Positions 23,705 through 51,773 of a stretch of 51,773 bases of DNA are shown in pieces. A model generated the notes under the pieces. It was given only the letters and a program-made list of their open reading frames with translations. It was not told the DNA's origin and did not search any database. Each line of letters opens with the position of its first letter. Positions within the stretch are counted from its first letter, which is position 1. The DNA comes from Candidatus Margulisiibacteriota bacterium (GTDB lineage: Bacteria; Margulisbacteria; WOR-1; XYC2-FULL-46-14), in contig JBHPMS010000004.1 of assembly GCA_042563095.1 (NCBI GenBank), positions 1 through 51,773 on the forward strand. Direction: 5' to 3'. The position numbers and the translations under genes are program-made.

Positions 23705-26700
23705 ACAGTTTGATTGGCGCAATTTAGTATTATACGGAATTTTAGCTTTATTGCTGCTTTCCTTGTTTGCACCATTAATGGGAGAGGCTGACCGCGCTAC
23801 AGAAATTTCGTTTTCAGAATTTTTAAACTACCTGGATGCCGGCCAGATCAAAGAAGTTACTATTAACGGTGAAATAATAACCGGGAATTTAAAAACAGGC
23901 AAAAACTTCAAATCTCGCTCATACAATTATCCCAATCTGGTCTCTGTGTTAAGGGATAAAAATGTTGCGATCAAGGTTGAAAATCCAGCTGAGAATGCCT
24001 GGATTATGGGATTTTTATTCCAGCTGATGCCCGTTATTTTATTTATGGCAATATTTTATTGGTTAATATTACGGCAGGCTTCTTCTATGAATAACCAGGC
24101 GATGGCTTTTGGTAAGTCGAAAGCTAAACCATTACAGGGTAAAACCAACATAACATTTGCTAATGTTGCCGGAGTGGATGAGGCCAAGGAAGAGCTTTAT
24201 GAAATTGTAGACTTCTTAAAAAATCCGAAAAAGTATCAGGCGCTTGGCGCAAAAATTCCTAAGGGATTGATATTAATGGGGGCGCCTGGCACCGGAAAAA
24301 CGCTTTTGGCCAGGGCGATTGCTGGAGAAGCGGGTGTCCCGTTCTTCTCCATATCAGGATCAGATTTTGTAGAGATGTTTGTAGGGGTGGGGGCATCAGT
24401 GACAGGAGACACACCGGTTTTAATTAGAGAGGAAGAAAAAACCAGATTGTTGCCGATAGGAGAGTTTATCGATCAATATTATAAATCGGACGTAGAAGGG
24501 TATTTACCAATTGAAGGAGTTAGGACATTAGGCTATGAAGGAAAAACTACACAAAGATATTCTTCTGAAAAGAAATTTTTCGGTCAAAGTAATTGGAAAG
24601 GCGTTAAAGGAGTATATCGCCATAAAGTAAATGAAATTTATGAAATAGAATTTTCTGACGGAGCGGTAAAAACAACTGGTGACCATAGCATCTTTGTAAG
24701 GGAAGGAAACCACATTGTTTCTAAAGAAGCTTCGGAGTTAAAAGTTGGTGAAAAACTGGTAAATTTGCCATTTAAAGTTCGTGGGAAATATTCGCCTGAA
24801 TTAGGCACCCAACATCATGTGCGAGCTTTTAATTTTCCTGCCCAGGTTGATTTAGAACTAGAGCTGTGGGAAGAACTCCCTACCTGGTTTAATAAAATCG
24901 TTTATTCAATCGTAAAAAAAGAAGCAATGCTCCAGAGTCAGATTGGAGCTAAGGTTGGAGTAACCGGATCTGCTGTTGGAACCTGGCAGAGAGAGGAGAA
25001 AAAGCCGCAATATCTTTCAAGTGTTTCAAAGTATCCATATTTACCTAAAACAGTAAAAGTCACATCCCAGCTAATGAAGCTACTTGGCTATTATACGGCC
25101 GAAGGACGAGATAATAATGGATTGGAATTTATTTTTGGAATTCACGAAGGCGAAGTGATTAGAGATTGTATCGAATTAATGAAAAATACTTTTAATGTTG
25201 AACCACGGCTGGAAACAACCAATACAAATTCTGTCAGGATTCATTATGTTGCACCTTTGGGAGATTTTTTTGCACGGCATTGTGGTAACGGGAGCCATAA
25301 AAAGCATGTGCCAGAATTCATTTGGGATCTTCCGGAGGAATACTTTCTTTCATACTTAGAGGGGTGGTCAATTGGTGATGGATATATAACTACAAATGAA
25401 AAGTTAAGCATTACTTCGGTTAGTTATCAGCTAATTTTAGAGATGAGCTGGCTTTGTGCAATGCATGGCATAAAGGTTGGTATCAGGCATGGTAAAAATA
25501 AACCGGGAAGAATTATCCAAAAAAAACCACTCCCGGGCGGGGAATATTGGAGTATTGTTATCGGAAAGACCAGTAATCCTTTTATTCAACAATCTTCTCC
25601 AACAAAACAGATTAAAAAATCGGTTATCACAAAGATAGTTAAAAAAGAATTCAAGGGTTTTGTGTATGATCTTTGTGGATGTGATAACGAGGCCTTCTTT
25701 GGCGGAGAAAAACCTATCCTCTTACATAATAGTCGTGTACGTGGAGTATTTAAAGAAGCAAAAAAACAAACTCCTTCCATTATTTTTATGGACGAGATCG
25801 ATGCGGTTGGAAGACATCGAGGAGCGGGCTTAGGCGGAGGGCATGACGAAAGAGAACAAACCTTAAATCAGCTACTAGTTGAAATGGATGGATTTGATCC
25901 GAATATAAATATTATTGTTATAGCCGCAACCAACCGGCCAGACATCCTTGATCCGGCGCTCTTGAGACCAGGGCGCTTTGACCGCCAGATTGTTTTGGAT
26001 AAGCCAGACCTAAAAGGCAGAAAAGAGATATTAGATATTCATGCTAAAAATAAACCGTTAGAAGATGCTGTAGAGCTAAGTATTTTGGCCCGTCGGACAC
26101 CTGGATTTACCGGGGCGGATTTAGAAAATGTTTTAAATGAAGCAGCCATCTTAGCCGCTCGAGCTGAAAAGAAAAAGATCTCGATGAAAGAATGTGAAGA
26201 AGCGGTGGACCGGGTAATGGCGGGGCCAGAGCGGAAGAGCCGGGTGGTTTCTGATAAAGAGAAAAAAATTATTGCCCACCACGAAGTTGGCCATGCGCTG
26301 CTTTCAAAAATACTGCCCGGGGCAGATTCGGTACACAAGATATCAATTCTTCCACGCGGAATGGCGTTGGGTTATACCCTTCAACTTCCACTCGAAGATA
26401 AATATTTAATTTCAAAAAAACAGATTATGGATGAAATAACAGTGCTTTTAGGCGGCCGTTCTGCCGAAGAGATCTTCTTTTCTGAATTAACTTCCGGGGC
26501 ACATAATGATTTGGAACGTGCCACTCAATTGGCCAAAAGGATGGTTTGTGAATACGGGATGTCTGAACTTGGTCCGCGTACTTTTGGACGGAAGGACCGG
26601 CAGGTTTTTCTAGGCCGCGACATTGCCGAAATGAAAGATTATTCAGAAGATACTGCTGACGAAATTGATAAAGAAATAGATAAAATAATTGCGGCTTGCA

Positions 26701-26840
26701 ATAAACGCGCAAAAAAAATACTCTCATGCAACAAGGCTAAGGCGGAAGAGATTGCTGCTGTTTTGATGGAGAAAGAAACACTTGAAGGGGAAGCCTTAGA
26801 AAATGTTCTCAAGGGTATAGCTGCAGAAGAAGAATGTTAG
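23694..26840 (+). CDS. ftsH: ATP-dependent zinc metalloprotease FtsH precursor containing an intein (603-aa extein)
   Basis: 2 [13 protein letters not shown] pore loop, FMDEID, SRH, HEVGH. Confidence 0.97.
24396..25730 (+). mobile_element. Intein with LAGLIDADG homing endonuclease (445 aa)
   Basis: FVGVGA|SVTGDTPV ... TTGDHS ... LLGYYTAEG ... [10 protein letters not shown] ... VYDL ... LLHN|SRVR; removal restores FVGVGASRVR. Confidence 0.95.
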
Positions 26841-27911: not shown

Positions 27912-27967
27912 TTGACAACATGCACAGAAATGCATATAATAGTATATATATAATGCATGTAAATGCA
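27912..27967 (+). promoter_or_regulatory. Consensus sigma70 promoter TTGACA-N17-TATAAT with two TGCA-N6-TGCA operator-like boxes
   Basis: Boxes at 27921-27934 and 27954-27967. Confidence 0.8.
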
Positions 27968-28439
27968 ACAAGGAAATATGATAATGTCTAAAAACAAGCT
28001 AAAAAAATTGAAATTAAGGCAGGTTTCAGAATCTATTAAAAAGGGTGTTTTATATGATGCTAATTTGATTGGTTTAAGGTTAAAAGAGATAAGAGCAGCC
28101 TTAGGAATGACGCAAAAGCAGTTAGCAAAAAGACTTGGAGTAGATCCGTCGGTTGTTTCGAAAATAGAAGAAAGAGCGGGGAATTGTAATCTAAAAACAT
28201 TATTAAAGCTAGTAACCGCATTACAATGTAAAATTAAAATAGCAGTTGTAGCGGGAGCATCGTTAGAAAGCATTGTGAAAAATCAAGCAAAAAAAGCAGC
28301 AAAAAAAATATTGGACAGGACCTATTCGAATATGGCATTGGAAAAACAAGCCCCAAGAAAAAGCGCCTATCGTTATCAGTTTAAGGAAATTGTAGAAGAT
28401 TTATGTAATAATCCTGGTCCTGAACTTTGGGAAGAATAG
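27963..28439 (+). CDS. Xre-HTH protein, 'mobile mystery protein A' type (true start may be a later ATG)
   Basis: IRAALGMTQKQLAKRLGV, NMALEKQ, terminal LW; paired with Fic gene. Confidence 0.85.
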   Translation: MQQGNMIMSKNKLKKLKLRQVSESIKKGVLYDANLIGLRLKEIRAALGMTQKQLAKRLGVDPSVVSKIEERAGNCNLKTLLKLVTALQCKIKIAVVAGASLESIVKNQAKKAAKKILDRTYSNMALEKQAPRKSAYRYQFKEIVEDLCNNPGPELWEE

Positions 28440-29056
28440 TGCCGAAGTTTGAGGCAATAGAAGGCGCAACACCAATTGAAGATGCATCAGATTTGATCCC
28501 AACTCACATCTTAGCTCGTTCAGAGCTTAATGAGTGGGAGGCCGCTAATATTTTAAAGGCCGCCAGAAAATATTTGGGTAAGAGGAAAAAATGGAAACTT
28601 GATATTGCTTTTATTAAAGAAGTCCATCAAAAGATGTTTGATGAAACCTGGAAGTGGACTGGTAAATTTAGGCAGAGGAACTTTAACCTTGGAGTTGACT
28701 GGCATAACATTCAAGAAAGATTAAAAGCTTTAGTTGATGATATTTCTTTTTGGGGGGAGAAAGAAAGCGATTTAGATTTAATTGAACAGAGTGTTCGGAT
28801 CCATCATCGACTAGTTAAGATCCACCCATTTGTGAATGGCAATGGACGACACGCTCGTCTGGTTGCTGATATATTTTTGTTTTCTAATAATCACAAATTA
28901 CCAATTTGGCCCAATAATGAATTAATAGAAGAGACCGATATTAGAAAGAGATATATTGAAGCACTGAAAGAGGCTGATAAAGGGAATTACAAAATGCTTG
29001 AGAAATTTACAAAAGATTTATTTATCCCAAAGAGTCAAGAAATTTCCTCATGTTAG
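28427..29056 (+). CDS. Fic-domain protein, 'mobile mystery protein B' type
   Basis: GATP, ELNEWEAANI, HHRLVKIHPFVNGNGRHAR. Confidence 0.9.
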   Translation: MGRIVPKFEAIEGATPIEDASDLIPTHILARSELNEWEAANILKAARKYLGKRKKWKLDIAFIKEVHQKMFDETWKWTGKFRQRNFNLGVDWHNIQERLKALVDDISFWGEKESDLDLIEQSVRIHHRLVKIHPFVNGNGRHARLVADIFLFSNNHKLPIWPNNELIEETDIRKRYIEALKEADKGNYKMLEKFTKDLFIPKSQEISSC

Positions 29057-29782
29057 TTGCCTGTGCCAATAGTGTATCAGCATCAGAAAAATCCTCGATT
29101 GTGATATATTGTGGTCTAAGTTTTTTTTCTTTTAATAAATATTCCAGAATTCGATATTCAAGCTCTCCGGACGCTTGATGATCATCCCTCAGCATCCCAA
29201 GCTTAAATGGATTTTCTTCTAGAGCCACATGATCTGTTGTGAATACCGGATGACTAGTATGAATCTCGGTCAGCCTTCCCAAAACAGCCCCATCTACCTC
29301 TTCTAATCTTTCTTTAAAGAGTTCTAATAAAATAGCTTGTCTTTTGGATTCATCTCCTTTTATAAATCTTTCTTGGACCGGGATTTGAGCATAATTAAAA
29401 CACATAATCATAAAATGACCGATATCAAATACAAAACCAATTCTGCTATCTACTTGTGCGAACATTATATTAATAAAATCTGGCAGAGAAACTTCTGGGT
29501 GTAATAATTGAGCTGGAGGGTTCTCAATGGAGGCCTGGATCCCACTTTGCAAGAATGGAGTTAGGCGGCTATTGGTTTGTGTGACTATGGTATCTATTTT
29601 TAATGGATGATCACCGGACTCAGGTGCTCCACCAAAACCGTACTATTGCCTTCTCTCATTGCTAGATCAGAAGTAGTTTTATGCTCAAATGCTTCAACCG
29701 TTTTAGATAAATTGTCAGGAAGCTTTACTCTTTCCCTATAAGGGAAAGTAATTTTTATATTTTCTCCAACTCTAGCTGGCAT
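29022..29782 (-). pseudogene. Probably frameshifted xylose-isomerase/AP-endonuclease-2-like TIM-barrel gene
   Basis: ASIENPP, GFVFDIGH, EIH motifs in the downstream frame, which stays open to 29642 and overlaps the upstream ORF (ATG 29782, SD GGAGG). Confidence 0.5.
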
Positions 29783-29806
29783 GTTAATTCTCCTCCATCT
29801 AAATAA

Positions 29807-29833
29807 ATTTCGATCAATCATCGAAAAAATTTC
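29807..29833 (-). promoter_or_regulatory. sigma28-like promoter GAAA-N15-ATCGAAAT
   Basis: Same spacing as the other copies; weaker -10 match. Confidence 0.45.
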
Positions 29834-29885
29834 AACTTAAATTGTATTTCTAAAGCTGTTATAATGATTTAAGAGAGGTTATAAG

Positions 29886-30158
29886 ATGAAAAAATTAAAT
29901 GAAGAATATAAGATAATTGAAGTACCGAAAAAGGGAGGGGTAACAATAACTGATAGTACCCTTAAAAAATTTGGTTTTAAGGGGATGAAACTAGTTTTAT
30001 TGAAAACGCCTGAATACATAACACTCAAAAAACTTCATTCTGCCTCAGATGATGAATTAAGAAAAGCAATTAATGACATAAGAGGATTTGCAAAAAATAA
30101 AGGTATTACCAGGTCTGATGTTGCAAAGGCAATCAGTGCAGCCAAAAAATCAAAGTAA
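29886..30158 (+). CDS. AbrB/MazE-like antitoxin
   Basis: KKGGVTI..LKKFG; C-terminal KGITRSDVAKAI; directly upstream of PIN gene. Confidence 0.7.
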   Translation: MKKLNEEYKIIEVPKKGGVTITDSTLKKFGFKGMKLVLLKTPEYITLKKLHSASDDELRKAINDIRGFAKNKGITRSDVAKAISAAKKSK

Positions 30159-30554
30159 GTGCTTAAAGTAGTATTTGATACAAACATTTTTGTTTCCGGA
30201 ATAATCTGGCAGGGACTGCCGGGAGAGGCACTAGCAAACTGGCTTTCTAATAAAATTGAGTTAGTTATTTCAAGACAAATTCTTGAAGAATTAACGAATA
30301 CTCTTAGAAGGCTGGATGTTCCAGAAGAAAAGGTAAATGTTTTATTAAATCAAATTTTAGGTAAAGCAACTATTGTTGATCCTCAAATAAAAGTAAACTT
30401 AGTAAAGAAAGATCCATCAGACAATAAATTTCTAGAATGTGCTATCGAAGGGAAGGTTGGTTATGTAATAAGCGGAGATAAGCATCTTTTGGAAATAAAA
30501 AAAATTAACGGGATTCAGATTATTAGCGCAAGAAAGTTATTGGAACTACTATGA
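30159..30554 (+). CDS. PIN-domain putative toxin
   Basis: VVFDTNIFVS, DPSDNKFLECA, ISGDKHLL. Confidence 0.92.
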   Translation: MLKVVFDTNIFVSGIIWQGLPGEALANWLSNKIELVISRQILEELTNTLRRLDVPEEKVNVLLNQILGKATIVDPQIKVNLVKKDPSDNKFLECAIEGKVGYVISGDKHLLEIKKINGIQIISARKLLELL

Positions 30555-39282: not shown

Positions 39283-39356
39283 AGCCTCCGGGCGGAGTCG
39301 AACCGCCGACCTAGTGCTTACCATGCACTCGCTCTGTCCGTCTGAGCTACAGAGGC
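39283..39356 (-). tRNA. tRNA-Thr(GGT), CCA not encoded
   Basis: GCCTCTG/CGGAGGC acceptor, GCTC/GAGC D stem, AGTGC-ATGGTAA-GCACT anticodon arm, GGCGG-TTCGACT-CCGCC T arm. Confidence 0.96.
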
Positions 39357-40111: not shown

Positions 40112-40138
40112 AGTATAATAAAAGGGGAGGCGATAAAG

Positions 40139-40261
40139 ATGACAAAGTTAAGGGAAGTATTTAAAAAATTATTAAAGCTAGAAAAAGGGATTAAGTCTTT
40201 AAAGAAAGAAATTAAAGCTGCAAAGCTGGCGCAAATAAAGAAAAGAAAATTTAAGGCTTAA
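40139..40261 (+). CDS. Cationic peptide A, 40 aa: MTKLREVFKKLLKLEKGIKSLKKEIKAAKLAQIKKRKFKA
   Basis: SD GGGGAGG; second copy at 41677 differs at many synonymous positions. Confidence 0.75.
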   Translation: MTKLREVFKKLLKLEKGIKSLKKEIKAAKLAQIKKRKFKA

Positions 40262-40292
40262 TTCTTTTCGACCAATAGTTCAAAAGAGAATA

Positions 40293-41471
40293 TTAAACAA
40301 AAGCGCTTAAGAACTTTGAGGCGCCGATTACCCTGATATGCCCTTTGATATAATCGACATTTTCTTCGTTTACAACTTCAAAAACATGCGGGATTTTTAG
40401 CTTTAAACTAAAGTACTTAAGGCTTTCTGACATTGATTTTGATGAGCTTTTGGCCTCCGCACAAAACCACGGCTTATTATCGATGCAAACCAAAAAATCT
40501 ACCTCTCTTTGTTCTTTATCCCTAATATAATAGAGCCGGGCCTTATAGCCTTCGACATCACAGAGGAAATCGCAGAACTTTAAAAGATGAGACGCGATCA
40601 TGTTTTCAAATTTTATGTTTTCATCTTTTATTTCCGACCAGTCCCACAGGTAAGCCTTAGGTTCTTTCCGCAGGGCTTTTATAAGAGTGCTTTGAAAAGG
40701 ATATATTCTAAAATAATAAAAAAACTTTTCCAGTACGTTTGCCCATAATGTTATTGTCTTGTGGTTCACCTCCAAATCTTCGCGCAATGAATTTAAAGAG
40801 AAAAGAGACCCGATTTTATCAGGCAGAAGATCAACCATAATTTGCAATGCCGATAAATCCCGCAAGTTTTCAACGTCCCGGATATCCTCCTTGATTAGCC
40901 TGTCTGCTTTGGAGGCGTGCCAGCGGCGCAAAGACCTTTCGTTTTGTTTTATAAATACTTCGGGGAAACCGCCGAATTTAAAAAGCAAATCGAATATGTT
41001 TTTATTCTGTCCGTGATTATTTGTAAAGTCCAACTTTGTAAACGGAAGGGGATAAGCATCTTTGTTTAACAGCTCTCCCAGAGACAGCGGGTGCAGACGG
41101 TAAAAGTGATATCTGCCCATTAATGAATCCCCGCCTTTTCGATAAACATCCAGCCGCGCGCTTCCCGTTACGAGGATATTAAACCTGCTTTTGTTTTTGT
41201 CATATTCTCCTTTTATATAATTTTTCCACTTTTTATATTTATGAATTTCATCAAAGATTAAAAGCTTTTTATCGGCCGGGAGTTTGTCGGCAAGAATGGT
41301 TTTTCTGTCTGATTGTTTGTCCCAGTTCAGGCAGGTATAGTTGTTTAAATAGTGCTTTTCTCCGATTTGGTTTGCGAATGTAGTTTTCCCAACCTGGCGC
41401 GGTCCGGAGATAAAAGCCATTTTTTCTTTCAGGTCTTCTAAGACATACTTTTCTAAATATCGATTAATCAT
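40293..41471 (-). CDS. AAA_14 ATPase with DUF4143-like C-terminus
   Basis: GPRQVGKTT, FDEIHK, TGSARL, GGFPE, REVDF..EAK; start moved to ATG 41471 (SD AGGAG). Confidence 0.9.
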   Translation of the reverse strand: MINRYLEKYVLEDLKEKMAFISGPRQVGKTTFANQIGEKHYLNNYTCLNWDKQSDRKTILADKLPADKKLLIFDEIHKYKKWKNYIKGEYDKNKSRFNILVTGSARLDVYRKGGDSLMGRYHFYRLHPLSLGELLNKDAYPLPFTKLDFTNNHGQNKNIFDLLFKFGGFPEVFIKQNERSLRRWHASKADRLIKEDIRDVENLRDLSALQIMVDLLPDKIGSLFSLNSLREDLEVNHKTITLWANVLEKFFYYFRIYPFQSTLIKALRKEPKAYLWDWSEIKDENIKFENMIASHLLKFCDFLCDVEGYKARLYYIRDKEQREVDFLVCIDNKPWFCAEAKSSSKSMSESLKYFSLKLKIPHVFEVVNEENVDYIKGHIRVIGASKFLSAFV

Positions 41472-41505
41472 TTTGCCAAACTCCTTAACAACAAGCTTCC
41501 TACAA

Positions 41506-41554
41506 ATTATACCAAAGTATAAAAAATAGTCAAACAAATTACACCCGGGTATAA
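41506..41554 (-). promoter_or_regulatory. sigma70 promoter TTGACT-N16-TATAAT with two TTA(T/C)AC-N4-GTATAA boxes
   Basis: Boxes at 41507-41522 and 41539-41554. Confidence 0.7.
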
Positions 41555-41676
41555 AAACCGCGCGGAACGATATGGATGAGATTGAAAAAGAGCTGTATTA
41601 TGAAGGGACCAGGGCAAAAAGGTTGAAATTGCAGATTGTTTAATAAAGAGGGATGTGGTAATCTGCCAAAAAAGGG

Positions 41677-41808
41677 GTGATAAAAAAGGCTACGCTGAGG
41701 GAATTATTTAAAAAAATAATAAAACTGGAAAAAGGGATAAAATCATTAAAGAAAGAAATTAAAGCTGCAAAGCTGGCGCAGATTTAAAGTAGAAAATTTA
41801 AAGCTTAA
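41677..41808 (+). pseudogene. Decayed copy of cationic peptide A
   Basis: ATLRELFKKIIKLEKGIKSLKKEIKAAKLAQI*SRKFKA*; no ATG at the equivalent position (possible GTG at 41677), internal TAA at 41785. Confidence 0.75.
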
Positions 41809-42026
41809 CGTTTTTCGATTAACAACTCAAAAATATTCTTTTCGGCATATATTTTTCTGGTTTCTCCGTATGGAAGCGTAATCAATATTTTGTATTGCCA
41901 GAGATAAACGCCAACTAGAATGAATAGAATAAAGCCATAAACCGCAACTCTTTGTACGACTTTTACCTGCAGCTCCATATCTTCATCCAGGAAATTTTCA
42001 AGCCAGGCTGACAATTTTCTTTTCAT
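41805..42026 (-). CDS. Small single-TM protein coupled to the ABC exporter
   Basis: ATGA overlap with exporter stop; hydrophobic VAVYGFILFILVGVYLW. Confidence 0.65.
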   Translation of the reverse strand: MKRKLSAWLENFLDEDMELQVKVVQRVAVYGFILFILVGVYLWQYKILITLPYGETRKIYAEKNIFELLIEKR

Positions 42027-43774
42027 GAAACCTGCTCCTTCTGCTGTAGTTTGTAAAGAGAATAAAATTCCCCCTTATTTTTAATTAGTTCTTTGAATGA
42101 GCCTTTTTCATGCACTGCGTTTTCTTTAATCACAACGATTTGATCAGCGGTTTGGACTGACGAAATGCGGTGAGTGATTACAATTACAGTTTTGTCTTTT
42201 GTAAACTCTTTTAAATTGTTTAAGATATTATGCTCGCTTAAAACATCAAGTGCAGAAGTTGCTTCGTCCAGGATCAATATCTTTACATTGCGATAAACAG
42301 CCCTGGCAATCATCAGCCGTTGTTTCTGTCCGCCCGAAAGTCCAATCCCGGTCTCTCCGATAAAAGTGTCATACTGTTGCGGCAGGGTCATAATAAAGTC
42401 ATGGATTTCAGCACAATTACAGGCAGAGATTGCTCTATTGCGATCAACCTTTGTTCCATAGGAGCCATAAGTAATGTTTTCCAAAACTGTTCCAGTAAAT
42501 GGATTTGATCCCTGGGAAACAATCGAAATGTTAGAACGTAACGATATTAGTGATATATGTTTCATATTGTATTTGTCAATAATGATTTGTCCGTTAGAAG
42601 GTTCAATAAAGCGTTGCATCAGATCAATGATGGTGCTTTTTCCTGCTCCACTCATCCCTACAAAGGCGGTAGTGGTGCCAGGCTGTGCTTCAAAATTAAT
42701 ATTTTGCAGAGTCGGTTTTTTTGAGCCTTGATAACAGAAGGTTACATTTTCAAATTTAATTGTTCCATCCATTTTGAAAAGAATAAATGTTTTGCTCTCG
42801 TGGTAGGCTTCGGTTTCTGCTGAAAAAATTTCATCTACTCTTCTCATGGAGACCAGGCTGCTGACTACAGATTTGTAAATCGAGCCGAGGTCCATAAAAG
42901 GTTGGTGGACTTGCCCAAGGTATATGAGGATTGCCATAACTTCTCCAATAGTAATGTGTCCGGTAATTACGCGGTATCCTCCGTACCACCCGATGGCAGT
43001 AGTCCAAATTTTTATTATGCTGTTATCGAGAAAGGCATTCAACATCCCCATAAATGAATTTTCCCTGATCAGCCGAAACATCGCTTTTAATTTGTCGGCC
43101 AGGCGATTGGCTTCATAGATTCCCTGGTTAAATGATTTGATAGTTTTTATATCTCCAATTTTTTCTTGGTAGAAAGCATAGATTTCTGATTCTTTTTCTT
43201 GCGCCCGCTGGGCTACATCTGCAAAACGGCCAGCAAAAAGATGGGTTTGGATAAAGTAAAGCGGAATTCCAAGCAGGGCCATTAAGGTTAGTGTTTTATC
43301 GATTGTGAAACAGATGACCAGCAAGGCAATTAAGCGGAGTGTAGTTTGAATAATAACAGGGATTAGTTCGGCAATTGCGTCAACTACTACTTCAATATCA
43401 TCACTAATCCTAACGATCATATCCCCAACATGTTTTTCATTAATGGTTGCCATTGGAAGTTTTTGCAGGTGATCGTAAAATTTCTTTTTTAGATCAATGG
43501 AGAGCCGTTGGTGAATAAAATTATCTAAATAAGTAGTAATGTTGCCAAAAAGGGCATTAAAAAAGAAAATAATTAGTCCCAGGACCAACATTAGGTTTAA
43601 AAGATAAAGGTCCTGGTTGGGGTAAGCATAATCAATCAAGACTTTTGTTATCAGGGGCATAACCATTCCCAATAGGACGGTGATTCCGATCGAGATCAGG
43701 GAGATTACGCTTTTGTCCCAATAAGGTACAACGATTTGGACATAACGTTTTAATAATGGCCAATCTTTTTTCAT
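42023..43774 (-). CDS. ABC exporter, fused permease+ATPase (MsbA/peptide-exporter class, no C39 peptidase domain)
   Basis: TM domain, GMSGAGKST, LSGGQKQR, ILDEATSALD, H-loop. Confidence 0.95.
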   Translation of the reverse strand: MKKDWPLLKRYVQIVVPYWDKSVISLISIGITVLLGMVMPLITKVLIDYAYPNQDLYLLNLMLVLGLIIFFFNALFGNITTYLDNFIHQRLSIDLKKKFYDHLQKLPMATINEKHVGDMIVRISDDIEVVVDAIAELIPVIIQTTLRLIALLVICFTIDKTLTLMALLGIPLYFIQTHLFAGRFADVAQRAQEKESEIYAFYQEKIGDIKTIKSFNQGIYEANRLADKLKAMFRLIRENSFMGMLNAFLDNSIIKIWTTAIGWYGGYRVITGHITIGEVMAILIYLGQVHQPFMDLGSIYKSVVSSLVSMRRVDEIFSAETEAYHESKTFILFKMDGTIKFENVTFCYQGSKKPTLQNINFEAQPGTTTAFVGMSGAGKSTIIDLMQRFIEPSNGQIIIDKYNMKHISLISLRSNISIVSQGSNPFTGTVLENITYGSYGTKVDRNRAISACNCAEIHDFIMTLPQQYDTFIGETGIGLSGGQKQRLMIARAVYRNVKILILDEATSALDVLSEHNILNNLKEFTKDKTVIVITHRISSVQTADQIVVIKENAVHEKGSFKELIKNKGEFYSLYKLQQKEQVS

Positions 43775-43862
43775 TTTAGTAAGTATAATACTATTTTATT
43801 ATACAAGCAATAGAATAGGAGGAATATTGCTTTTTGCAGGGTTTAGATGTAGAATTATCAAA

Positions 43863-45817
43863 ATGCCAAATGAAGTTTTAAAAACTTCGGTTTTTATCCT
43901 GCTTTTTTCTTTTCTTTCTTTTACCGCTTCAGCCCAATTCCTGGATGTCCCATTAACCAGCCCGATCCATGACGCCATCAAACTTTTAGCGGATGAAGGG
44001 ATAGTGCGGGTTGGCGCTGATAAAATATTTAACCCGAACGCCCTTATCAACCGCTATGAAATGTCGGTTTTGATCTTCCGCACCCTGCGTAAGACGTTGG
44101 GAAAAGATATTCCTCCAGCCGAGCCGCAGACAATGAGCCGGTTTTTTAAAGATATACCAAAGGGGCATTATGCTTATGATTCTGTCAGCCGCTTATTTAA
44201 ATCCGGGGTCGTATCAAAACCGTATAAGTCGGTGTTTAAAGGGGACAGTTCGGTCAGCCGATACGAATTTTATACAGCGGCAGCTAAGATGCTAAAAAAA
44301 ACCGGCAAAGGGCTTAAAGCGTCCGACCCCCAAAAAAAAGATACGTTTATTCTGACCTTGATGTTTTGCACTGGGCTTATCCGTCTATAGTCAGCTTGAT
44401 CCGGGCAGGGTATGTTCCGGAGCCAAAAGATAATACCGAACTATTTGAGGGAGAGGATTGGGTTACCCGGAAGGAGGCGGCGGCGCTGCTCTATTTTGTG
44501 GTCAAACGGGCTGCCGGCAGCGAACAGAAGCCGCCGGCGGCAGAAAAAAAGAGCTATCCGGATGTCCCGGCCGGCCACTACGCCGCGGACGATATTGCGG
44601 AACTGCTGGAAGCGGGGATACTTACCCTGCATGCCGAAAAAAAGTTTAAAGGGGGAAGGCCGGTAACGCGCTACCAGGCGATCGACCTGTTGGCTCAGTT
44701 GTTGGAGCAAGTCTTGTCCGGACAGGGAGGACTTAAGCAGGCTGCTTATGACCTGCGCTACAAAGATGTTTCCCTGCTACATCCGGCTTATTTGGACTAC
44801 GGTTTTGATTTTTCAATGAGCAATACAGCCAGCTTGGCACAGGGAAACCTGACCCAAGCTTCGGCCAGCCAGTTAGCCAATATAGCGTTTGACCGGAGCC
44901 TGGGGAATACCGCCCGCGGTTATGTCAATCTAAGGGGTAGTTATAACTTTGGCCAGACCACCGCAATAAACTCTTCAATAACTCAGGCTTATCTGGTATA
45001 TAATGCTGATCCATTTCATCTCCAGGCCGGCCGATTTCCGCTCTATGAGACCTATGACCCGTTTGGCAACAGTATTTTTGTTGATTCATTGCAAGATATG
45101 GTAGTGGTGGAGGGGTCGAAAAACTTTGGCCGGATAATGGGAGCTGTTAGCAAACTGGTCAATGTGGGGATTTTACAGGATGATTCCAAGGCAGGATTGG
45201 TCCTCTATCAACCGGAGCTCCCCCTTGAGCTTAGCCTGGGGTTTGCTCTGGTGACAGACCCAACTGACCCGAGCGGGGCATACAGCAGCGCCCGGCTTCC
45301 ATGCAATATTACACAGCTCTATATTGGCGTGCGTGTTCCGGCCAACAAGAATGTTACCCTTACACTTGAAGGCGCACAGGTATCTTTGAGTAATGAGGAA
45401 ACCGTGCTTCCGTATATTGGATTTACCAATGTGACCGATACAAAAGCATATCAAGCTTCCATTTCTTTTATAACCGATGACCTCAAGAACCAGTACTCTT
45501 TAGGTTACCAGAATATCGGGGAGGATTATTATATGGCAGAACTGCTCGATCCGGCGGCGCTGGTAGGTGGAGGGCAGGGGACCAGCGCCTATTTATATAA
45601 ATGGAGAAACTATATCAATAACCGGGAACATATCGGTGTCGGAATAGAATATATCATGTCTGGAGGAGAGAACCTCCAGAACAAGATAAATCTGTTATAC
45701 AGCCGGAGAATGTCCGACCAGATATATTCCAAGGCGACCGTAACCAGGACTGATGTCAAGACCGCCGGCGGGCAGGGCAGCTGGGATATTACCGGGCTGT
45801 TGGCGGCCTATTTTTGA
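43863..45817 (+). pseudogene. Multi-SLH outer-membrane beta-barrel, copy 1; frameshifted at A8 (44332-44339)
   Basis: Two ORFs join via one extra A into a paralog of 47608-49989; four full SLH repeats; ends AAYF. Confidence 0.85.
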
Positions 45818-45819
45818 TG

Positions 45820-45846
45820 CAAGAAATGCGGGTAGAAACACGATAA
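45820..45846 (+). promoter_or_regulatory. sigma28-like promoter CAAG-N15-CACGATAA
   Basis: Read directly. Confidence 0.6.
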
Positions 45847-45866
45847 TATAAACAGAGGTGAGTGTT

Positions 45867-45980
45867 ATGAAACGCCAGAAACAAGTAAAGATATCTGAAG
45901 CGATCAAAAGGATCAGAAAAGAGGTCAAAGAGCGCAAAGTGTCACTTAAGCAATTGAAGCTGGACGGGCAGAGATCATAA
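45867..45980 (+). CDS. Cationic peptide B, 37 aa: MKRQKQVKISEAIKRIRKEVKERKVSLKQLKLDGQRS
   Basis: SD GAGGTG; alignable to peptides C and D. Confidence 0.7.
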   Translation: MKRQKQVKISEAIKRIRKEVKERKVSLKQLKLDGQRS

Positions 45981-46033
45981 ACTGAACAGATAAGCGGCTC
46001 TTCCTAAAAATCGGTTCAAAGATTTTGGTAAAC

Positions 46034-47241
46034 CTATAGATATTGCCAGGGGACCAGGGTGATTTTGTCGGTCAGCTTTTCCGGCCGGCTGCCCATAGTA
46101 ATTACATAACCCTTTTTTGCAACTTTTGGATAATCATCAAGAAAATTAATGAGCCCTTTTATTTGAGCTGTCCCAACCCTTTTGGACGCTTTGATCTCGA
46201 TCGGAATAACCTTGTTCCCAAGGTCAATAATACAATCAACCTCGGCTCCGGCGGAGGTGCGCCAATAATTAACCCGGTAGTCCTTGTTCAAAAGACGGAT
46301 CCTGCGAATTATCTCAAGCATTACCGCGTGCTCAAATAAAACTCCTTTTTGAGTATTTATAAGACCTTTAGTTAAAGGCAATCGGCAAATCGCGTTTCTG
46401 ACCCCAAGATCAAAAAAGTAGAAACGGGGAGAGGTTAAAAGGCGCTTGCGGGCCCTTTTTGTGTATGGTTCAATTCTTTCAACAATAAGCGTATCTACCA
46501 ATAAATTATAGAATTCCTTAACCGCAGGAGCGCTGACCCCGGATTCCATAGAAAGCCTGTTAAAATTCGGGCTGGTTCCGGACTCTTGTGCCGCCAGCTC
46601 TAAAAAACGCGAGAATGCGCCGATCTTTCTGCTGAGGGACTCCGCGCGGATCTCTTCTTCCAAATAGATATGGGAATATGCCTTAATAAAATCAGAACGG
46701 TCGTTATCGTTTTTTAAGGTGATGTTTTTCGGGAGCGACCCAAAAACCAGGCTTTTTTCAAAAGAATAGTCCGGCTTATTGATAACCACCGCAGTTCTGG
46801 TATATAATTTTCTTTTATCAATCCCAGCTCTCCATATGTAAACGGATCCATGTGAAAGTATTTTATTCTGCCGGGGAGCAGGTTGGTCCCTTTTCTTCTC
46901 AGTTTTCTGGCGGAAGAACCGGTAATTATAAAACTGGCCAGGTTTTTATCAAGCAGGTATTGGATAGCATCAAATAGTTCCGGTATCTTTTGGGCTTCAT
47001 CAATAAAAACCAGCGGCCTCTTTTTATTAGCCTCGATCTGGCGGATCAAGACAGCGGGGTCTTTTTCCAGCTCCATCCTGGTAGACGGGTTTTGCAGCAA
47101 AAAACTCATGCTGTTGCGTTTGTCTTTCAGCAAGCTTTCGATCAGGGTTGTTTTGCCGACCTGTCTGGGCCCCAGGATAAGAGCCGAGTGTCCCTGCTTT
47201 ATTAAACGCTTTAATTGCTTCTCTAGATTTCTTAATAACAC
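46034..47241 (-). pseudogene. Frameshifted AAA_14/DUF4143-like ATPase
   Basis: GPRQVGKTT/FIDEAQK in 46714-47241; GSLP...EVD..IEIK in 46034-46789; frame change near 46790. Confidence 0.85.
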
Positions 47242-47261
47242 TTTATATCTGCCTTGTAAAA

Positions 47262-47294
47262 ATAAAGTATACTTTATAATATCCCGGATGTCAA
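47262..47294 (-). promoter_or_regulatory. sigma70 promoter TTGACA-N17-TATACT with perfect palindrome ATAAAGTATACTTTAT over the -10
   Basis: Read directly. Confidence 0.7.
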
Positions 47295-47310
47295 GGGGGA
47301 GGAGCCTCAG

Positions 47311-47523
47311 TTACGCCAGCAATGCTGCCGGCAGCTCTTTAATTTCTTCTCGATTGGCAAAGGAGCTTTCAGGTCCGATTATCTCCGCTTCTCCAAAATA
47401 TACTTGAAGCGCCATACCAAGCAGTACGGTAATGCCAATAGATATTAAAGAAATTATACTTTTATCCCAGTAGGGGATTCCCAGTTGGATATAACGCCTT
47501 AATAGCGGCCAGTCTTTCTTCAT
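47311..47523 (-). pseudogene. Deleted remnant of a second ABC exporter
   Basis: First 37 aa (MKKDWPLL...SLISIGITVLLGM) closely match 42023-43774, then an unrelated tail. Confidence 0.85.
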
Positions 47524-47607
47524 GTTTTAGATAGTATATTATGTTTTAGGTGCAGTTTCAATGGGGGCTTGCATATAGGGTTTCATATAATGTATAATTT
47601 GCGAATT

Positions 47608-49989
47608 ATGAGAAAAATTATAACTTTGTTCCTATTATTATTGGTTTTTAGCCTGGCAGCTAACGCAGAATTTGTTGACGTCCCAAAACAAAATCCTCTA
47701 AGTGATGTTTTACAACTGTTATCGGTTGAAAGAGTAGTAAGCCCTGGCAGAGGGAGTAAGACTTTTAATCCTGATGCAAATATTACACGCTACGAAATGG
47801 CTGCAATATTATATCGAACTTTGAGGCGCATTCGAAGTATCCCCGCGGCTTCGACCACAACGATGAAGGTTCATTTTAAGGATATCAATCCCAAGCATTA
47901 TGCCTATGATGCTGTTCGCAGGCTACACAAAGCAGAGATTCTCTCAAAACCGAAGAAGAATAAGTTTATGGGGAATCAAAAAGTTAAACGCTATGAAATG
48001 GTTGCCGCTTTTGCCAAGCTCTTAAAAAAAACCCCGGTTTATAATATCTACGAAGTGCCGGAGGAATCGGTCTACATGTATAGTGATGTTAAACAGAATC
48101 ATTGGTCTTTTCCATACATGCTGGATTTAATAGAACGGGGCTATCTACCGGTGCCAGAGGGTGCACAGGATCATTTTAGCGGGGAGCAGTACGCCACCAG
48201 AAAAGAAGTTGCGGTCCTCTCTTACTTTTTAATGAGAAAGATGACAGAGTTGCGCAGAAATATTTCTAGTAAAAAGACCGCAACGATTGCTGCTCAAGCC
48301 AGCCTTCCCCAATCGTATCGTGATGTGCCAAACAGCCATGCTGTGGCTAGTGATATCTACGAATTAGCCGAAGCTGGAATTTTAAGTCCAGGCAAAGGAG
48401 ATCTTTTTAGGGGGAATGATTCTCTCACTCGTTACGAAGCGATGGAGTTGTTGACCCGGATATTAGAATCAGTTTTGGGACCCTTAACTGAGGCCGATTA
48501 TGATCTAGGATACAAAGATGTTTCGGTTCTCAATTCTTCTTATCCTTCCATTCAAAAACTAATAAAATTGGGAATCTTGCCAATGGGGAACAATCAAGAA
48601 TTGTTCAACGGGCAAAATATGGTAACCCGCTACCAAATGATTTATTCTTTCTTTCTTCCGATCGAAGATATTTTGACCGGAGTAACTGTTTTTCAGAAGG
48701 CCAGCCCAAAGATTATTTATCACGATGTCCCAAAAGATCATTTTACTTATCCGGTTATTCAAAAACTAATTGGCCTGGGAACTTTACGGGGCGGAGCAAA
48801 TTATACATTTAATGGGAACGATTATGTAGGTAGATATGAGGCGGCCCATTTTATTACAAACTTGCTAAAGACGGTTTACACCACAATTGAGGATGTAAAA
48901 GCAATTGAAACTCCAGAATATTTGGATTATGGATTTGATTTTTCGTTGACCACGACTTTAGATTATTTGCAAAGGGAGAACACAAAATCAAGTGGGGGAA
49001 CGATGAGCCGTGCCTATGCTTATCAAACAGCCACACTTATCTTTAAGGGGAATGCGGGGAAAGATATTAGCGGGTACCTGAATCTAAAGACCTCCTACTA
49101 TTTTGGTCAGTTGACCACCCCCAGTACCAGCTTCTCCCTGGGATATTTAACTTTAAAAAGGAGACCGCTCACAATTCAAGCTGGAAGGACTGCTTATTAC
49201 AATGGGTATGATCCATTTGGAAATAGTTTGTTTGCAGATACTAGCAGTTCAGATTTAATTATTGTACAAGGAGCAAACCAGCTATTAAAAGGTTCGTTTG
49301 CAGTTGGGAAGTTGATCTATTTGGCAAATGATATATCATTTGATTCCAACATTGCTTCATTATATATAACACCACGCCTTAAACTCTTTAATCGGGCAGA
49401 ATTTTCATTTGGTTTAAACATGATGAATGATCCGCTTGATCCGAGTGGTTTATACACCGGTGGTATTTTACCAACCCGAATTACCCATCTTTATGCCGGA
49501 TCGAGAATTTCTCTAAATGATCGCTTTAAACTAAATCTGGAGGGAGCAAGTGTAGCCTATAGTAATGAAAGTGTAGTTTTACCTTACGTCGGATATTTAA
49601 CTAAAAAAGATTTAACTGCTTTTCAAACCGCATTAACTTATTACTCTCCAGATTATAAGCGACAACTATCAATTGGCTACCAGAGTATCGGGGATGATTT
49701 TTACATGGCACAATTCATCAGCCCGGGGGTTCAGGTTGGAGGAGGGCAGGGTACTACCGCATATCTGATCAAATATAGAAATTATTTTACAGGTGGAAAT
49801 TATGTTGGTCTATTGTTAGAGAATATTTCCAGGGATGGAACCAATACCACCAATCGCTACAATCTATTATACAATTTACGCCTAGCAGATCGAGCCTATC
49901 TCCGCTTTGATTTGATTAGAACAGATGACAATACCAGCAGTAAACGGAGCAGTTGGAACCTAACCGGAAAGACCTATATTTATTTTTAA
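47608..49989 (+). CDS. Multi-SLH (six repeats) outer-membrane beta-barrel, copy 2 (intact)
   Basis: Signal peptide; six (F/Y)xD(V/I)...R(Y/K)(E/Q) repeats; beta-rich C-terminus ending YIYF; start moved to ATG 47608. Confidence 0.88.
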   Translation: MRKIITLFLLLLVFSLAANAEFVDVPKQNPLSDVLQLLSVERVVSPGRGSKTFNPDANITRYEMAAILYRTLRRIRSIPAASTTTMKVHFKDINPKHYAYDAVRRLHKAEILSKPKKNKFMGNQKVKRYEMVAAFAKLLKKTPVYNIYEVPEESVYMYSDVKQNHWSFPYMLDLIERGYLPVPEGAQDHFSGEQYATRKEVAVLSYFLMRKMTELRRNISSKKTATIAAQASLPQSYRDVPNSHAVASDIYELAEAGILSPGKGDLFRGNDSLTRYEAMELLTRILESVLGPLTEADYDLGYKDVSVLNSSYPSIQKLIKLGILPMGNNQELFNGQNMVTRYQMIYSFFLPIEDILTGVTVFQKASPKIIYHDVPKDHFTYPVIQKLIGLGTLRGGANYTFNGNDYVGRYEAAHFITNLLKTVYTTIEDVKAIETPEYLDYGFDFSLTTTLDYLQRENTKSSGGTMSRAYAYQTATLIFKGNAGKDISGYLNLKTSYYFGQLTTPSTSFSLGYLTLKRRPLTIQAGRTAYYNGYDPFGNSLFADTSSSDLIIVQGANQLLKGSFAVGKLIYLANDISFDSNIASLYITPRLKLFNRAEFSFGLNMMNDPLDPSGLYTGGILPTRITHLYAGSRISLNDRFKLNLEGASVAYSNESVVLPYVGYLTKKDLTAFQTALTYYSPDYKRQLSIGYQSIGDDFYMAQFISPGVQVGGGQGTTAYLIKYRNYFTGGNYVGLLLENISRDGTNTTNRYNLLYNLRLADRAYLRFDLIRTDDNTSSKRSSWNLTGKTYIYF

Positions 49990-49998
49990 AATTGCACG

Positions 49999-50025
49999 CA
50001 AGTTTTTCGGGACTTGCTGCGATAG
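49999..50025 (+). promoter_or_regulatory. sigma28-like promoter CAAG-N15-TGCGATAG
   Basis: Read directly. Confidence 0.6.
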
Positions 50026-50057
50026 TAGCTGTAGTACGACAAAAGGAGGAGATTGCC

Positions 50058-50210
50058 ATGAGCAACAAAAAGGATACAAAGGTTTCTTCTGGCTACCAGA
50101 GTAAGGATTCCACACTAAAGGATATCAAGCTTTCAAAAGTTCTTCGCAAGCTCAGCGTAGTTGCATCAAAAAAACCCAAGTTTAGGTCGTTTAAGCAGTA
50201 CAGTTCATAG
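50058..50210 (+). CDS. Cationic peptide C, 50 aa: MSNKKDTKVSSGYQSKDSTLKDIKLSKVLRKLSVVASKKPKFRSFKQYSS
   Basis: SD AGGAGG; ATG 50058. Confidence 0.75.
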   Translation: MSNKKDTKVSSGYQSKDSTLKDIKLSKVLRKLSVVASKKPKFRSFKQYSS

Positions 50211-50222
50211 GAGGAATAAAAA

Positions 50223-51221
50223 ATGAGAAAGGGAATACTTATTTGTTTGGCTTTTTTTCTGATGGCAAGTGTTGGTAATGCTTATGAGACGATGATTATT
50301 GAAAGCAATCCTACGACCGGTGTTCTTCAAGAAGACCAGAGCACTGTTACATTGGATCCTTCAGGCAGTACAACGATTAATTATGATGCTCTTGGGCAGG
50401 ATCCAAAATACCTGGCGACAGTAGATGGAGGAGCAGTAATACCAGATTCTTCGGACGGGAGTACAAATCCCGGGACAATTCCTGATATTACAGCTCCAGT
50501 AGAAGATACTCCTTTGGGATCGGGCGGGGAAGGGAAGCTGGTGACACCAGCGAATACTGGTATTAGTTTGACTACCCCAACTATTAGCGGAGCGGTCGAA
50601 GACCAATTGCCGCAATTAAGAGATGTTCAAGATGTTGAAGCTATAGTTCCTTCTGGCGGGAACACTACGCCGCTTGTAACTTTTGATCCTAAAAAATTTA
50701 CGACACTTCCAACAATTGATCCCAAAAAGGTCAATACTAATCCGCCTCTTAATATTGTTCCCGTTACAAAGTTCATTGCCGAAGATGCTGAAACACCTCC
50801 AGTGGATGCAGATAAAGAGGCGGGTCCGGTTCTGCCATCCGCTTCAGACGCCAATCGAACAAGCAGGATTACGAGAAATCCGGATACTGATGCTGTACAA
50901 ACTCCGGCTCAGGCAAGAGATTTGGATACCGAAGCATTACAAAGGGCAAATGATCCTGGTGCCGGCGGCAAGGTTGTTGTCTACAAAGACCAAGAATCTG
51001 GTAAAACTATAGTTTATAAAGGCTCAAGCGCGGAGAGGACATCAAAGAGAGTATGGAAGTATCATCCTAATACTTCCCCAGAGTGGGCACAAAAAGAATA
51101 CTCTCCAGCAGAGAGAGCGCAAATCGAGCAGATAGAACTAGCTAGAAAGAAAACTGCGAAAAAGAAAATTGCCGCGAAGTACAAATATAAACAAGACCTT
51201 TATAAATTATTGAAGAGATAG
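50223..51221 (+). CDS. Secreted low-complexity Pro/Thr/Asp-rich protein with basic C-terminal helix
   Basis: SD AGGAGG; Sec signal peptide; compositional bias. Confidence 0.8.
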   Translation: MRKGILICLAFFLMASVGNAYETMIIESNPTTGVLQEDQSTVTLDPSGSTTINYDALGQDPKYLATVDGGAVIPDSSDGSTNPGTIPDITAPVEDTPLGSGGEGKLVTPANTGISLTTPTISGAVEDQLPQLRDVQDVEAIVPSGGNTTPLVTFDPKKFTTLPTIDPKKVNTNPPLNIVPVTKFIAEDAETPPVDADKEAGPVLPSASDANRTSRITRNPDTDAVQTPAQARDLDTEALQRANDPGAGGKVVVYKDQESGKTIVYKGSSAERTSKRVWKYHPNTSPEWAQKEYSPAERAQIEQIELARKKTAKKKIAAKYKYKQDLYKLLKR

Positions 51222-51237
51222 AGGGGGGAGAGTAATA

Positions 51238-51354
51238 ATGAAAAAGGTTAAATTAGTTGATGTCATAAAAAAGATTAGTTCAGCAGCAAAGAAGAACAAG
51301 ATTAAGTTCCGCCAGCTGCAGGCGATCAAGAAAGGGGATAATTCCAAAGCCTAG
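51238..51354 (+). CDS. Cationic peptide D, 38 aa: MKKVKLVDVIKKISSAAKKNKIKFRQLQAIKKGDNSKA
   Basis: G-rich SD; alignable to peptides B and C. Confidence 0.75.
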   Translation: MKKVKLVDVIKKISSAAKKNKIKFRQLQAIKKGDNSKA

Positions 51355-51447
51355 ACTAAATCTGAGAAACCACTTGACAAAACTATAATTCTAATATATA
51401 TTACATCCATGATATAGGACAAATATGTCCAATAATGGAGACATAAT

Positions 51448-51773
51448 ATGATTAGGGAAGAATTACAAACGAGAGCAAATGCAGAAGGCCTGCCTTTAAA
51501 AATTATCGAGAAAGAAGCTTTGCAGATTTATATTTTGGGTGAGTTTTTTTCCCTGCCAGAATCATCCCATTTTACCTTTCAAGGAGGAACCTGTTTACGG
51601 TTAGTCTATGGAGGCGTGCGCTATTCTGAAGATCTTGATTTTGTGACAACTGCAAAAGAGAATGATATTGCATGTTTAATCAAGAAACTTTCCTCCTCTT
51701 TAGGGCAGGTAGGGCCTTTATTTGAGGGGAGGATCGAAATCTTAAAGCAAAAAACATCAGAAACATTTTGCCG
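51448..51773 (+). CDS. AbiEii-type nucleotidyltransferase (type IV TA toxin family), truncated by window end
   Basis: FQGGTCLRLVYGGVRYSEDLDF; TTGACA at 51374 and GGACA-aata-TGTCC palindrome at 51417-51430. Confidence 0.88.
   Translation, partial: MIREELQTRANAEGLPLKIIEKEALQIYILGEFFSLPESSHFTFQGGTCLRLVYGGVRYSEDLDFVTTAKENDIACLIKKLSSSLGQVGPLFEGRIEILKQKTSETFC

Follow-up and report, generated by a model that had tools for sequence, protein, structure and literature searches.

A Lineage-Restricted Family of Lysine-Rich Small Proteins Encoded Behind SLH–Beta-Barrel Genes in Candidatus Saganbacteria

Introduction

What are the four very short, lysine-rich open reading frames (ORFs) that lie between positions 40,139 and 51,354 of a contig from Candidatus Margulisiibacteriota bacterium, and do they encode proteins at all? 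Small proteins are regularly overlooked, and next to nothing is known of those encoded by uncultured phyla. The stretch of DNA analysed here, hereafter the window, comprises the 51,773 nucleotides of contig JBHPMS010000004.1 (GenBank assembly GCA_042563095.1), read on the forward strand. A first-pass annotation, made from the sequence without database searches, had grouped the four ORFs, here called A, B, C and D, by a shared motif, and had proposed that they were leaderless antimicrobial helices, that the motif was an export or recognition signal or, alternatively, that they were histone-like DNA-condensing proteins. The analysis presented below finds that A–D are real, selected genes of a lineage-restricted small-protein family, which is encoded next to genes for S-layer homology (SLH) proteins with a putative outer-membrane barrel.

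Properties of the Peptides in the Window

All four peptides are encoded on the forward strand. Peptide A (40139–40261; 40 aa, intact), recognised as an ORF with a Shine–Dalgarno (SD) site, is the most divergent and the most amphipathic member. Peptide B (45867–45980; 37 aa counted from ATG) starts 50 nt downstream of the first SLH–barrel gene of the window and peptide C (50058–50210; 50 aa) 69 nt downstream of the second, while peptide D (51238–51354; 38 aa) lies 17 nt downstream of a 332-aa orphan gene that follows C. The positions first assigned to the four peptides hold, and each has an ATG and a strong SD site as had been described: a GGAGG-like sequence lies 6–10 nt upstream of the start in A, B, C and D alike, and a comparable SD-like 4-mer is found at just 209 of the 638 long ORFs of the window's genome. 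C had been seen solely inside a longer ORF, and it is indeed enclosed by an 85-aa frame opening with TTG (49953–50210).

The earlier count of four copies is correct for intact genes and overlooked a fifth, decayed one. This copy, A' (41677–41787, forward strand), is a duplicate of A that occupies the ancestral peptide slot, convergent to an operon of a 73-aa protein and an ATP-binding cassette (ABC) exporter; it has lost its ATG (AAG instead) and runs into a stop at codon 34. A and A' belong to a direct repeat of 157 nt (40129–40285 and 41676–41832) with 80% identity.

The charge counts reported earlier (13–16 Lys plus Arg against 2–4 Asp plus Glu) were reproduced, with 16/3 in A, 14/4 in B, 14/3 in C and 13/2 in D, and so was the absence of Cys and of a double-glycine site from the sequences of A–D, which also contain no Trp. 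Members of the whole family are 37–60 aa long and Lys-rich, with far more Lys than Arg and a net charge of +6 to +13, and neither a signal peptide nor a membrane segment is recognisable by eye. Hydrophobic residues make up 30–42% of A–D, the mean hydrophobicity ranges from −0.05 to 0.19, and the best 18-residue hydrophobic moment ranges from 0.39 to 0.61. The label "amphipathic" suits A (shuffle p = 0.05) and fails for B, C and D, whose moments are not above those of shuffled sequences (p = 0.18, 0.11 and 0.41, respectively). Peptide B has no aromatic residue, and AlphaFold2, supplied with a 15-row alignment, predicted a single helix over its residues 9–36 with a mean predicted local distance difference test score of 78. 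In most members (those aligned, together with P0008 and P0012), the C-terminal residue is small (Ala or Ser), often after Lys or Arg.

Sequence Similarity and Selection

The similarity of the peptides was evaluated by Smith–Waterman local scores against 1000 shuffles of the partner. Three pairs scored high (B–D, z = 5.1; C–D, 4.2; A–B, 3.6), and A–C, A–D and B–C were weak (z = 1.4–2.2), so that the family is held together transitively. Six-frame translation of the window's genome (1.0 Mb, 52% complete) yields 21,120 frames with 25 aa or more, amounting to 1.19 million residues, and the top non-self matches of each peptide among these frames are the other peptides. The strict motif of the first-pass annotation occurs six times in the 1.19 million residues, four of the occurrences being A–D, while a loose version occurs 14 times in the 21,120 frames, with A–D accounting for four and background for 10. 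The motif put forward earlier is real and is rare in the genome, and the similarity of the peptides is above chance in A–B, B–D and C–D. A hidden Markov model (HMM) built from the five copies detected no further members among the six-frame frames of this genome.

The first-pass annotation had suggested a scan of related genomes and a comparison of non-synonymous with synonymous substitution rates (dN/dS). The HMM of the five copies retrieved ORFs of 43 and 44 aa from two of three further genomes in the same family, with per-genome E-values of 9e-6 and 9e-5, and both are orthologs of B that likewise follow an SLH and barrel gene. Between the orthologs of genomes G001 and G003, dN is 0.34 and dS 1.39 (dN/dS 0.24). 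Between A and A', which differ by eight synonymous and five non-synonymous codon changes, dN is 0.069 and dS 0.79 over 32 codons; this low ratio (0.09) indicates that, during the greater part of its existence, the duplicate was retained as a coding gene. In the remaining pairs, synonymous sites are saturated or the sequences are too close for a reliable ratio.

Similar peptides occupy the same slot in relatives from Candidatus Saganbacteria/Margulisiibacteriota, and the family is, as far as searched, restricted to Candidatus Saganbacteria. A word-index search of 5.8 billion proteins returned 11 members, all of 44–60 aa; three of them carry a source name, each being called "hypothetical", and two of these stand under Margulisiibacteriota. 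Of the window's own peptides, word-index searching returned A, which is thus called as a protein in the public collection, and C only. An exhaustive HMM search of 1.84 billion representatives gave seven matches at E ≤ 1e-3. A–D have no family match in Pfam, NCBIfam, PADLOC, PHROGs or the PDB sequences, and all 15 members searched against Pfam have no family in common. The best PDB sequence (E = 0.016) is an unrelated toxin component, designed coiled coils remain at E > 0.6, and the best ESM Atlas score (0.81) leads to clusters without names and is uninformative. A resemblance to ribosomal protein bS21 (PF01165) was considered and rejected, as each of five genomes has its own rpsU and the peptides were not matched. 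Rfam gave no match in the window except the tRNA gene at 39283–39356. The literature searches listed no title or abstract on a small gene trailing OmpM-type genes or on Saganbacteria peptides, and the family is previously undescribed.

Position Behind the Barrel Gene

The strongest clue to what the peptides do is the link to the SLH–barrel gene, which is absent from the first-pass annotation. A trailing ORF was defined as an ATG ORF of 35–62 aa with at least 24% Lys plus Arg, an SD-like 4-mer at −16 to −4, and a start no more than 100 nt after the stop of an ORF of at least 250 aa. Just three of the 504 long ORFs in the window's genome are followed by such an ORF, namely those in front of B, C and D. 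All loci with this barrel that could be located, 21 in number, were fetched (10 genome contigs and 11 metagenome contigs), and 17 were left after one locus cut at the barrel and three duplicates had been dropped; outside the window's genome, 11 of these 17 pass the same rule, although L051–L053 are close variants of one another and the 17 loci are not all independent. The peptide is also present in two more loci, L048 (268 nt downstream, behind a zinc-finger ORF) and L056 (23% Lys plus Arg). Its usual location is that of the last cistron, 12–70 nt behind the barrel gene, with a strong ribosome-binding site of its own. Of six fetched regions behind other SLH genes of genome G002, the two that were usable have no trailing ORF.

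Some of these loci show further features. In L041 of G001, a second very basic ORF with an SD site lies between the barrel gene and the family peptide (4084–4248; 54 aa from GTG or 51 aa from ATG; 41% Lys plus Arg), which may be a further diverged family member. In L041, L044, L045, L046 and L051–L053, the 3' end of the peptide gene meets a convergent gene, which encodes a receiver regulator, pyrE or a radical S-adenosylmethionine (SAM) enzyme; the two 3' ends are at most 6 nt apart and overlap by up to 12 nt. Such spacing leaves no room for a terminator, and the transcripts, therefore, probably overlap.

A Short Motif Conserved Across Lineages

The most conserved part of the peptides is a 10-residue helix-start pattern, [VIT]-[KST]-[LI]-x-[DEKN]-[AV]-[ILMF]-x-x-[ILM], which was drawn up after the data were seen and recurs in 19 of 20 family sequences examined. 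The peptide of L056 is the one without it, and the peptide of L059, which is outside this count, also appears by eye to be without it. In all five subgroups (5/5), the motif is more identical than both of its flanks. Among close orthologs, identity is 0.83 in the motif, 0.50 before it and 0.43 after it, and in a distant subgroup it is 0.58 in the motif vs 0.24 and 0.21 in the flanks.

The Barrel Genes and the Co-Inherited Module

The first SLH plus beta-barrel (OmpM-type) gene of the window (43827–45817, forward strand) is split into two overlapping frames (43827–44390 and 44366–45817), while the second (47569–49989, forward strand) is intact, with 806 aa and an aromatic end residue. Both have SLH matches (PF00395; E = 1.3e-28 in the second, 1.3e-11 and 5.9e-06 in the two pieces of the first). 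The N-terminal piece of the first aligns to residues 19–155 of the second, and the C-terminal piece is 40% identical to it; the split reflects either a frameshift or an error in the assembly, and peptide B behind it is intact. The C-terminal part of the barrel proteins is a conserved stretch of 380 residues ending in Phe, which points to an outer-membrane beta-barrel. This type of barrel was found in 12 of 146 phylum genomes, all of one class. Five genomes without it have 11–19 other SLH matches each, so it is an accessory paralogue rather than the general tether.

The barrel gene is inherited together with other genes. In most loci, an ABC exporter, a one-helix membrane protein of 70–76 aa and a receiver-only regulator adjoin the barrel gene in convergent or divergent orientation. 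In the window, the ABC exporter gene (42023–43774, reverse strand) and the gene for the 73-aa conserved protein downstream of it (41805–42026, reverse strand) are present with A' in the usual convergent peptide slot, and the regulator is missing; a receiver-domain protein at 18975–19355 was examined as the module regulator and rejected at 30% identity. The exporter combines a transmembrane and an ATPase part (ABC_membrane and ABC_tran in Pfam) and is MsbA/HlyB-like, with no peptidase domain; its best NCBIfam match is MsbA (373 bits, under the cut-off of 602), and models of MsbA, of HlyB-type proteins and of bacteriocin exporters give it roughly equal scores. The ABC exporters of G001 and G003 (L120 9407–11395 and L121 13060–15060) are about 80 residues longer than that of the window, and the extension has a weak match to sigma-70 region 4 (helix-turn-helix). 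The 73-aa protein belongs to no known family, contains a single hydrophobic stretch that is taken to be a membrane helix, and is well conserved in an alignment of 11 homologues. Of 65 class genomes, 11 encode it, and every one of these also has the barrel; the one other genome of the 12 that have a barrel is 84% complete, and its barrel lies at a contig end. Barrel, peptide, ABC exporter and 73-aa protein share one set of about 12 genomes. Small-frame peptide matches occur in barrel-bearing genomes only, in 9 of the 11 that can be judged, a count that uses a model containing those very sequences.

The two barrels being 40% identical, the duplication of barrel and peptide is old. Duplication of the barrel–peptide unit and of the ABC gene dates from long ago; of the second ABC copy, a remnant is left at 47311–47523 (reverse strand, divergent from the second barrel gene), with 79% identity over its first 39 residues. 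The insertion of defence-type genes behind each peptide came later.

Radical SAM Neighbours

In several relatives, genes of the maturase type lie near the peptide genes or the module (L045, L050, L056, L059, G003, G005, G015 and G046). In L050, L056 and L059, the next gene behind that of the peptide, in the same orientation and after a short gap (34 nt in L050 and 12 nt in L056), encodes a B12-binding radical SAM enzyme, and L045 has two such genes in convergent orientation. In genome G003, five radical SAM genes surround those for the ABC and 73-aa proteins, no more than 15 kb from the barrel and the peptide: a SPASM enzyme with DynA as the best match (189 bits vs a cut-off of 450), three B12 enzymes with ApyD as the best match (226–263 bits vs a cut-off of 750), and a fifth protein of 488 aa. 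Close copies of the G003 B12 enzymes lie on the contig of the module in G005 and G015, and G046 has a more distant copy (E = 2e-44) 2 kb from its 73-aa gene. ApyD has been described as a B12 enzyme whose substrate is a ribosomally made precursor peptide, in which it methylates a Tyr (PMC10635010).

Locus L041 of G001 has a 74-aa ORF with a Cys-rich C-terminus (300–524) directly before a PapB-like SPASM radical SAM gene (619–1740). The two look like a separate precursor–maturase pair beside the barrel.

Possible Functions

A family with about a dozen database members is now shown to be a conserved one, on which purifying selection acts and which is linked to a defined module of SLH barrel, ABC exporter, 73-aa membrane protein and radical SAM enzymes. 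The reading that we favour, tentatively, is that the peptides are ribosomal products made for export, with the motif as a possible recognition element and the tail as a possible payload. The exporter and, where present, a maturase would recognise the conserved 10-residue motif, and the payload would lie in the fast-changing tail. Transport across the inner membrane would fall to the ABC protein, the barrel encoded on the same transcript would be either the way out or the site of action, and modification would be possible where radical SAM genes occur. The 73-aa membrane protein could be an immunity protein. The earlier suggestion of an export or recognition signal stands to this extent: the motif is the most conserved stretch, and the co-inherited ABC exporter and the radical SAM neighbours in relatives would fit such a role. 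Should the peptides be cargo, Saganbacteria, which are a sister group of Cyanobacteria, would have their first described system for peptide export or natural products, and an OmpM-type barrel would gain a new role; if they are not, they are still a handle on the making and control of an accessory barrel.

A number of points weigh against export. The peptides contain no leader-cleavage motif, the ABC protein is without a peptidase domain, the module has no periplasm-spanning adaptor of the usual size, and a porin-sized barrel would not normally pass a peptide of 4–6 kDa. Low hydrophobicity, together with amphipathicity not above shuffles in B, C and D, is also unfavourable; typical membrane-active helices are more hydrophobic than these peptides, which weakens the label "antimicrobial". 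In four of the 17 loci (L043, L047, L054 and L060), no peptide is found behind the barrel, and the ABC, 73-aa and regulator genes stay; in G001 and G003, the ABC gene is 5–9 kb away rather than adjacent. A profile–profile test between the close clade and the distant subgroups aligned the motif, but with no better than P = 0.0096 and a probability of 4%, and narrower HMMs did not reach the distant members, so that it is position, size, composition and short motif, taken together, that speak for one origin of all subgroups. As for modification, the radical SAM family matches are all below curated cut-offs, such enzymes are common (24 of 65 class genomes at 1e-30), none is present in the window or was found in its 52%-complete genome at E = 1e-30, and a Cys-rich ORF of its own lies upstream of the PapB-like enzyme next to the barrel of G001.

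One rival, which has perhaps one chance in a handful, is that the peptides stay in the cytoplasm as polyanion binders, the Lys-rich helix binding RNA or DNA as a small RNA chaperone or autoregulator for the highly expressed barrel mRNA, or as a nucleoid protein. The lack of a signal peptide or membrane segment by eye, the net charge of +6 to +13 and the predicted single helix with its narrow hydrophobic stripe would suit this role, and co-transcription with one gene suits a cis-acting regulator. Set against these, no nucleic-acid-binding family or fold was matched and Lys far exceeds Arg, while fast change beyond 10 residues in a dispensable gene is atypical of nucleoid- or ribosome-associated proteins; the co-inheritance with the exporter module would also be left unexplained. 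The histone-like alternative raised earlier, with HctB as its precedent, found no support: no nucleoid-protein family was matched, the peptides are single helices of 28 residues by prediction, and nothing beyond charge speaks for it. HctB (Hc2) of Chlamydia is a Lys-rich, basic histone-like protein, and the peptides resemble it in both respects; unlike it, they are far shorter, have no such repeats, give no family match at E up to 10, and are linked to an envelope module rather than to developmental genes.

Another reading, likewise rather unlikely, makes the peptides accessories of the envelope module that are not exported and act at the cytoplasmic side of the inner membrane, with the ABC exporter, the barrel precursor or the 73-aa protein as their target, in the manner of small transporter regulators. 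It would account for the strict linkage to the barrel and the co-inheritance with the ABC and 73-aa genes, and a cationic helix could rest on an anionic membrane surface. Known small regulators of transporters, however, are hydrophobic membrane peptides unlike these, the module persists without a peptide in 4 of 17 loci, and four diverged copies in one genome are hard to square with a stoichiometric subunit. That the frames have no protein function, being open by chance in an A-rich trailer or kept for a role at the RNA level, such as a translated 3' end that shields the barrel mRNA, is highly improbable. The Lys-rich, A-rich, low-complexity sequence and the 3' ends that abut or overlap convergent genes in many loci speak for it; against it stand dN/dS ratios of 0.09 and 0.24, a strong SD site in every copy, a capped-helix motif kept at the amino-acid level across saturated synonymous divergence, and the fact that B, C and D alone follow the trailing rule among 504 long ORFs.

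Comparison with Known Systems

For peptides made for export, the nearest counterparts are leaderless cationic peptides exported by ABC proteins, such as leaderless class II bacteriocins and phenol-soluble modulins. The family is like them in being small, cationic, helical by prediction, leaderless and present in several diverged copies, and its gene set, like theirs, includes an ABC exporter along with a small membrane protein. The core of leaderless class II bacteriocins is hydrophobic, usually Trp-containing and a compact helical bundle. In contrast, the peptides match no such family, have no Trp, are far less hydrophobic, and are predicted to form a single helix rather than a compact bundle; moreover, they are transcribed with an outer-membrane barrel gene and not with the exporter, in a host with two membranes.

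The barrel proteins resemble OmpM-type outer-membrane tethers and porins of Terrabacteria in having SLH domains, then a barrel-sized C-terminal part with an aromatic end (PMC10628300; 10.1101/2021.05.31.446380). OmpM homologues have been reported in Saganbacteria and Margulisbacteria in a preprint whose passages on synteny, gene neighbourhood and downstream genes mention no small trailing gene (10.1101/2021.05.31.446380). Unlike general OmpM-type tethers, this barrel type is confined to the 12 of 146 phylum genomes mentioned above.

Precursors of peptides synthesized on ribosomes and modified after translation (RiPPs), such as those of the ApyA/ApyD aminopyruvatide system (PMC10635010) and the DarE/DynA darobactin and dynobactin systems, likewise have a conserved recognition-like motif beside a hypervariable tail; several copies, B12-radical SAM and SPASM genes, and an adjoining ABC exporter in relatives are further likenesses. 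Unlike in RiPP systems, the enzyme matches are far below cut-offs and none lies in the window or the assembled half-genome, a recognition-element domain and a protease were not identified, and the peptides are without the aromatic or Cys motifs on which those enzymes act. A bolder version of the export reading is doubtful, and more so than the two alternatives in which the peptides stay inside the cell: a new peptide natural-product route in two-membraned Terrabacteria, with precursors transcribed together with a barrel of their own, modification by several B12-dependent and SPASM radical SAM enzymes, export by the ABC and 73-aa proteins, and the SLH-anchored barrel as a dedicated exit that replaces a TolC-type channel and adaptor. 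In such a route, the motif would be a common recognition tag and the four diverged copies of the window a small payload library.

Other Genes of the Window

The peptides lie in a region that also contains defence-type genes. An AAA_14/DUF4143 ATPase gene (40293–41537, reverse strand; PADLOC candidate defence gene PDC-S01) is flanked by the A/A' repeat and is an insertion, not a module member. A second DUF4143/PDC-S01 ATPase gene (46034–47241, reverse strand) is split into two frames and convergent to B; a recent duplication of these two genes was rejected, as their products are 21% identical. The 332-aa orphan ORF between C and D (50223–51221, forward strand) has a putative signal peptide read by eye, no Pfam, NCBIfam or PADLOC match, and no homologue in 65 class genomes. 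With unrelated DUF4143 ATPases behind A and B and an AbiEii fragment behind D, the region is a variable one that collects defence genes and in which the peptides are kept.

The AbiEii-type gene (51448–51771) starts 94 nt after D and is cut by the window end; a promoter-like site lies between the two (51374–51402), and no AbiEi-type gene is present upstream. Several genes in the region are decayed, such as the split DUF4143 ATPase and the 39-codon ABC remnant. A third AAA_14/DUF4143 ATPase gene is located at 13295–14644; the two tested match PDC-S01. Further away, a helix-turn-helix gene and a Fic/DOC gene lie at 27963–30554, as does a PIN-domain gene immediately ahead of that for valyl-tRNA synthetase; these three are likely of the toxin–antitoxin type. 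The FtsH gene (23694–26840) encodes 1048 aa and has an intein-splicing domain match inside its AAA domain.

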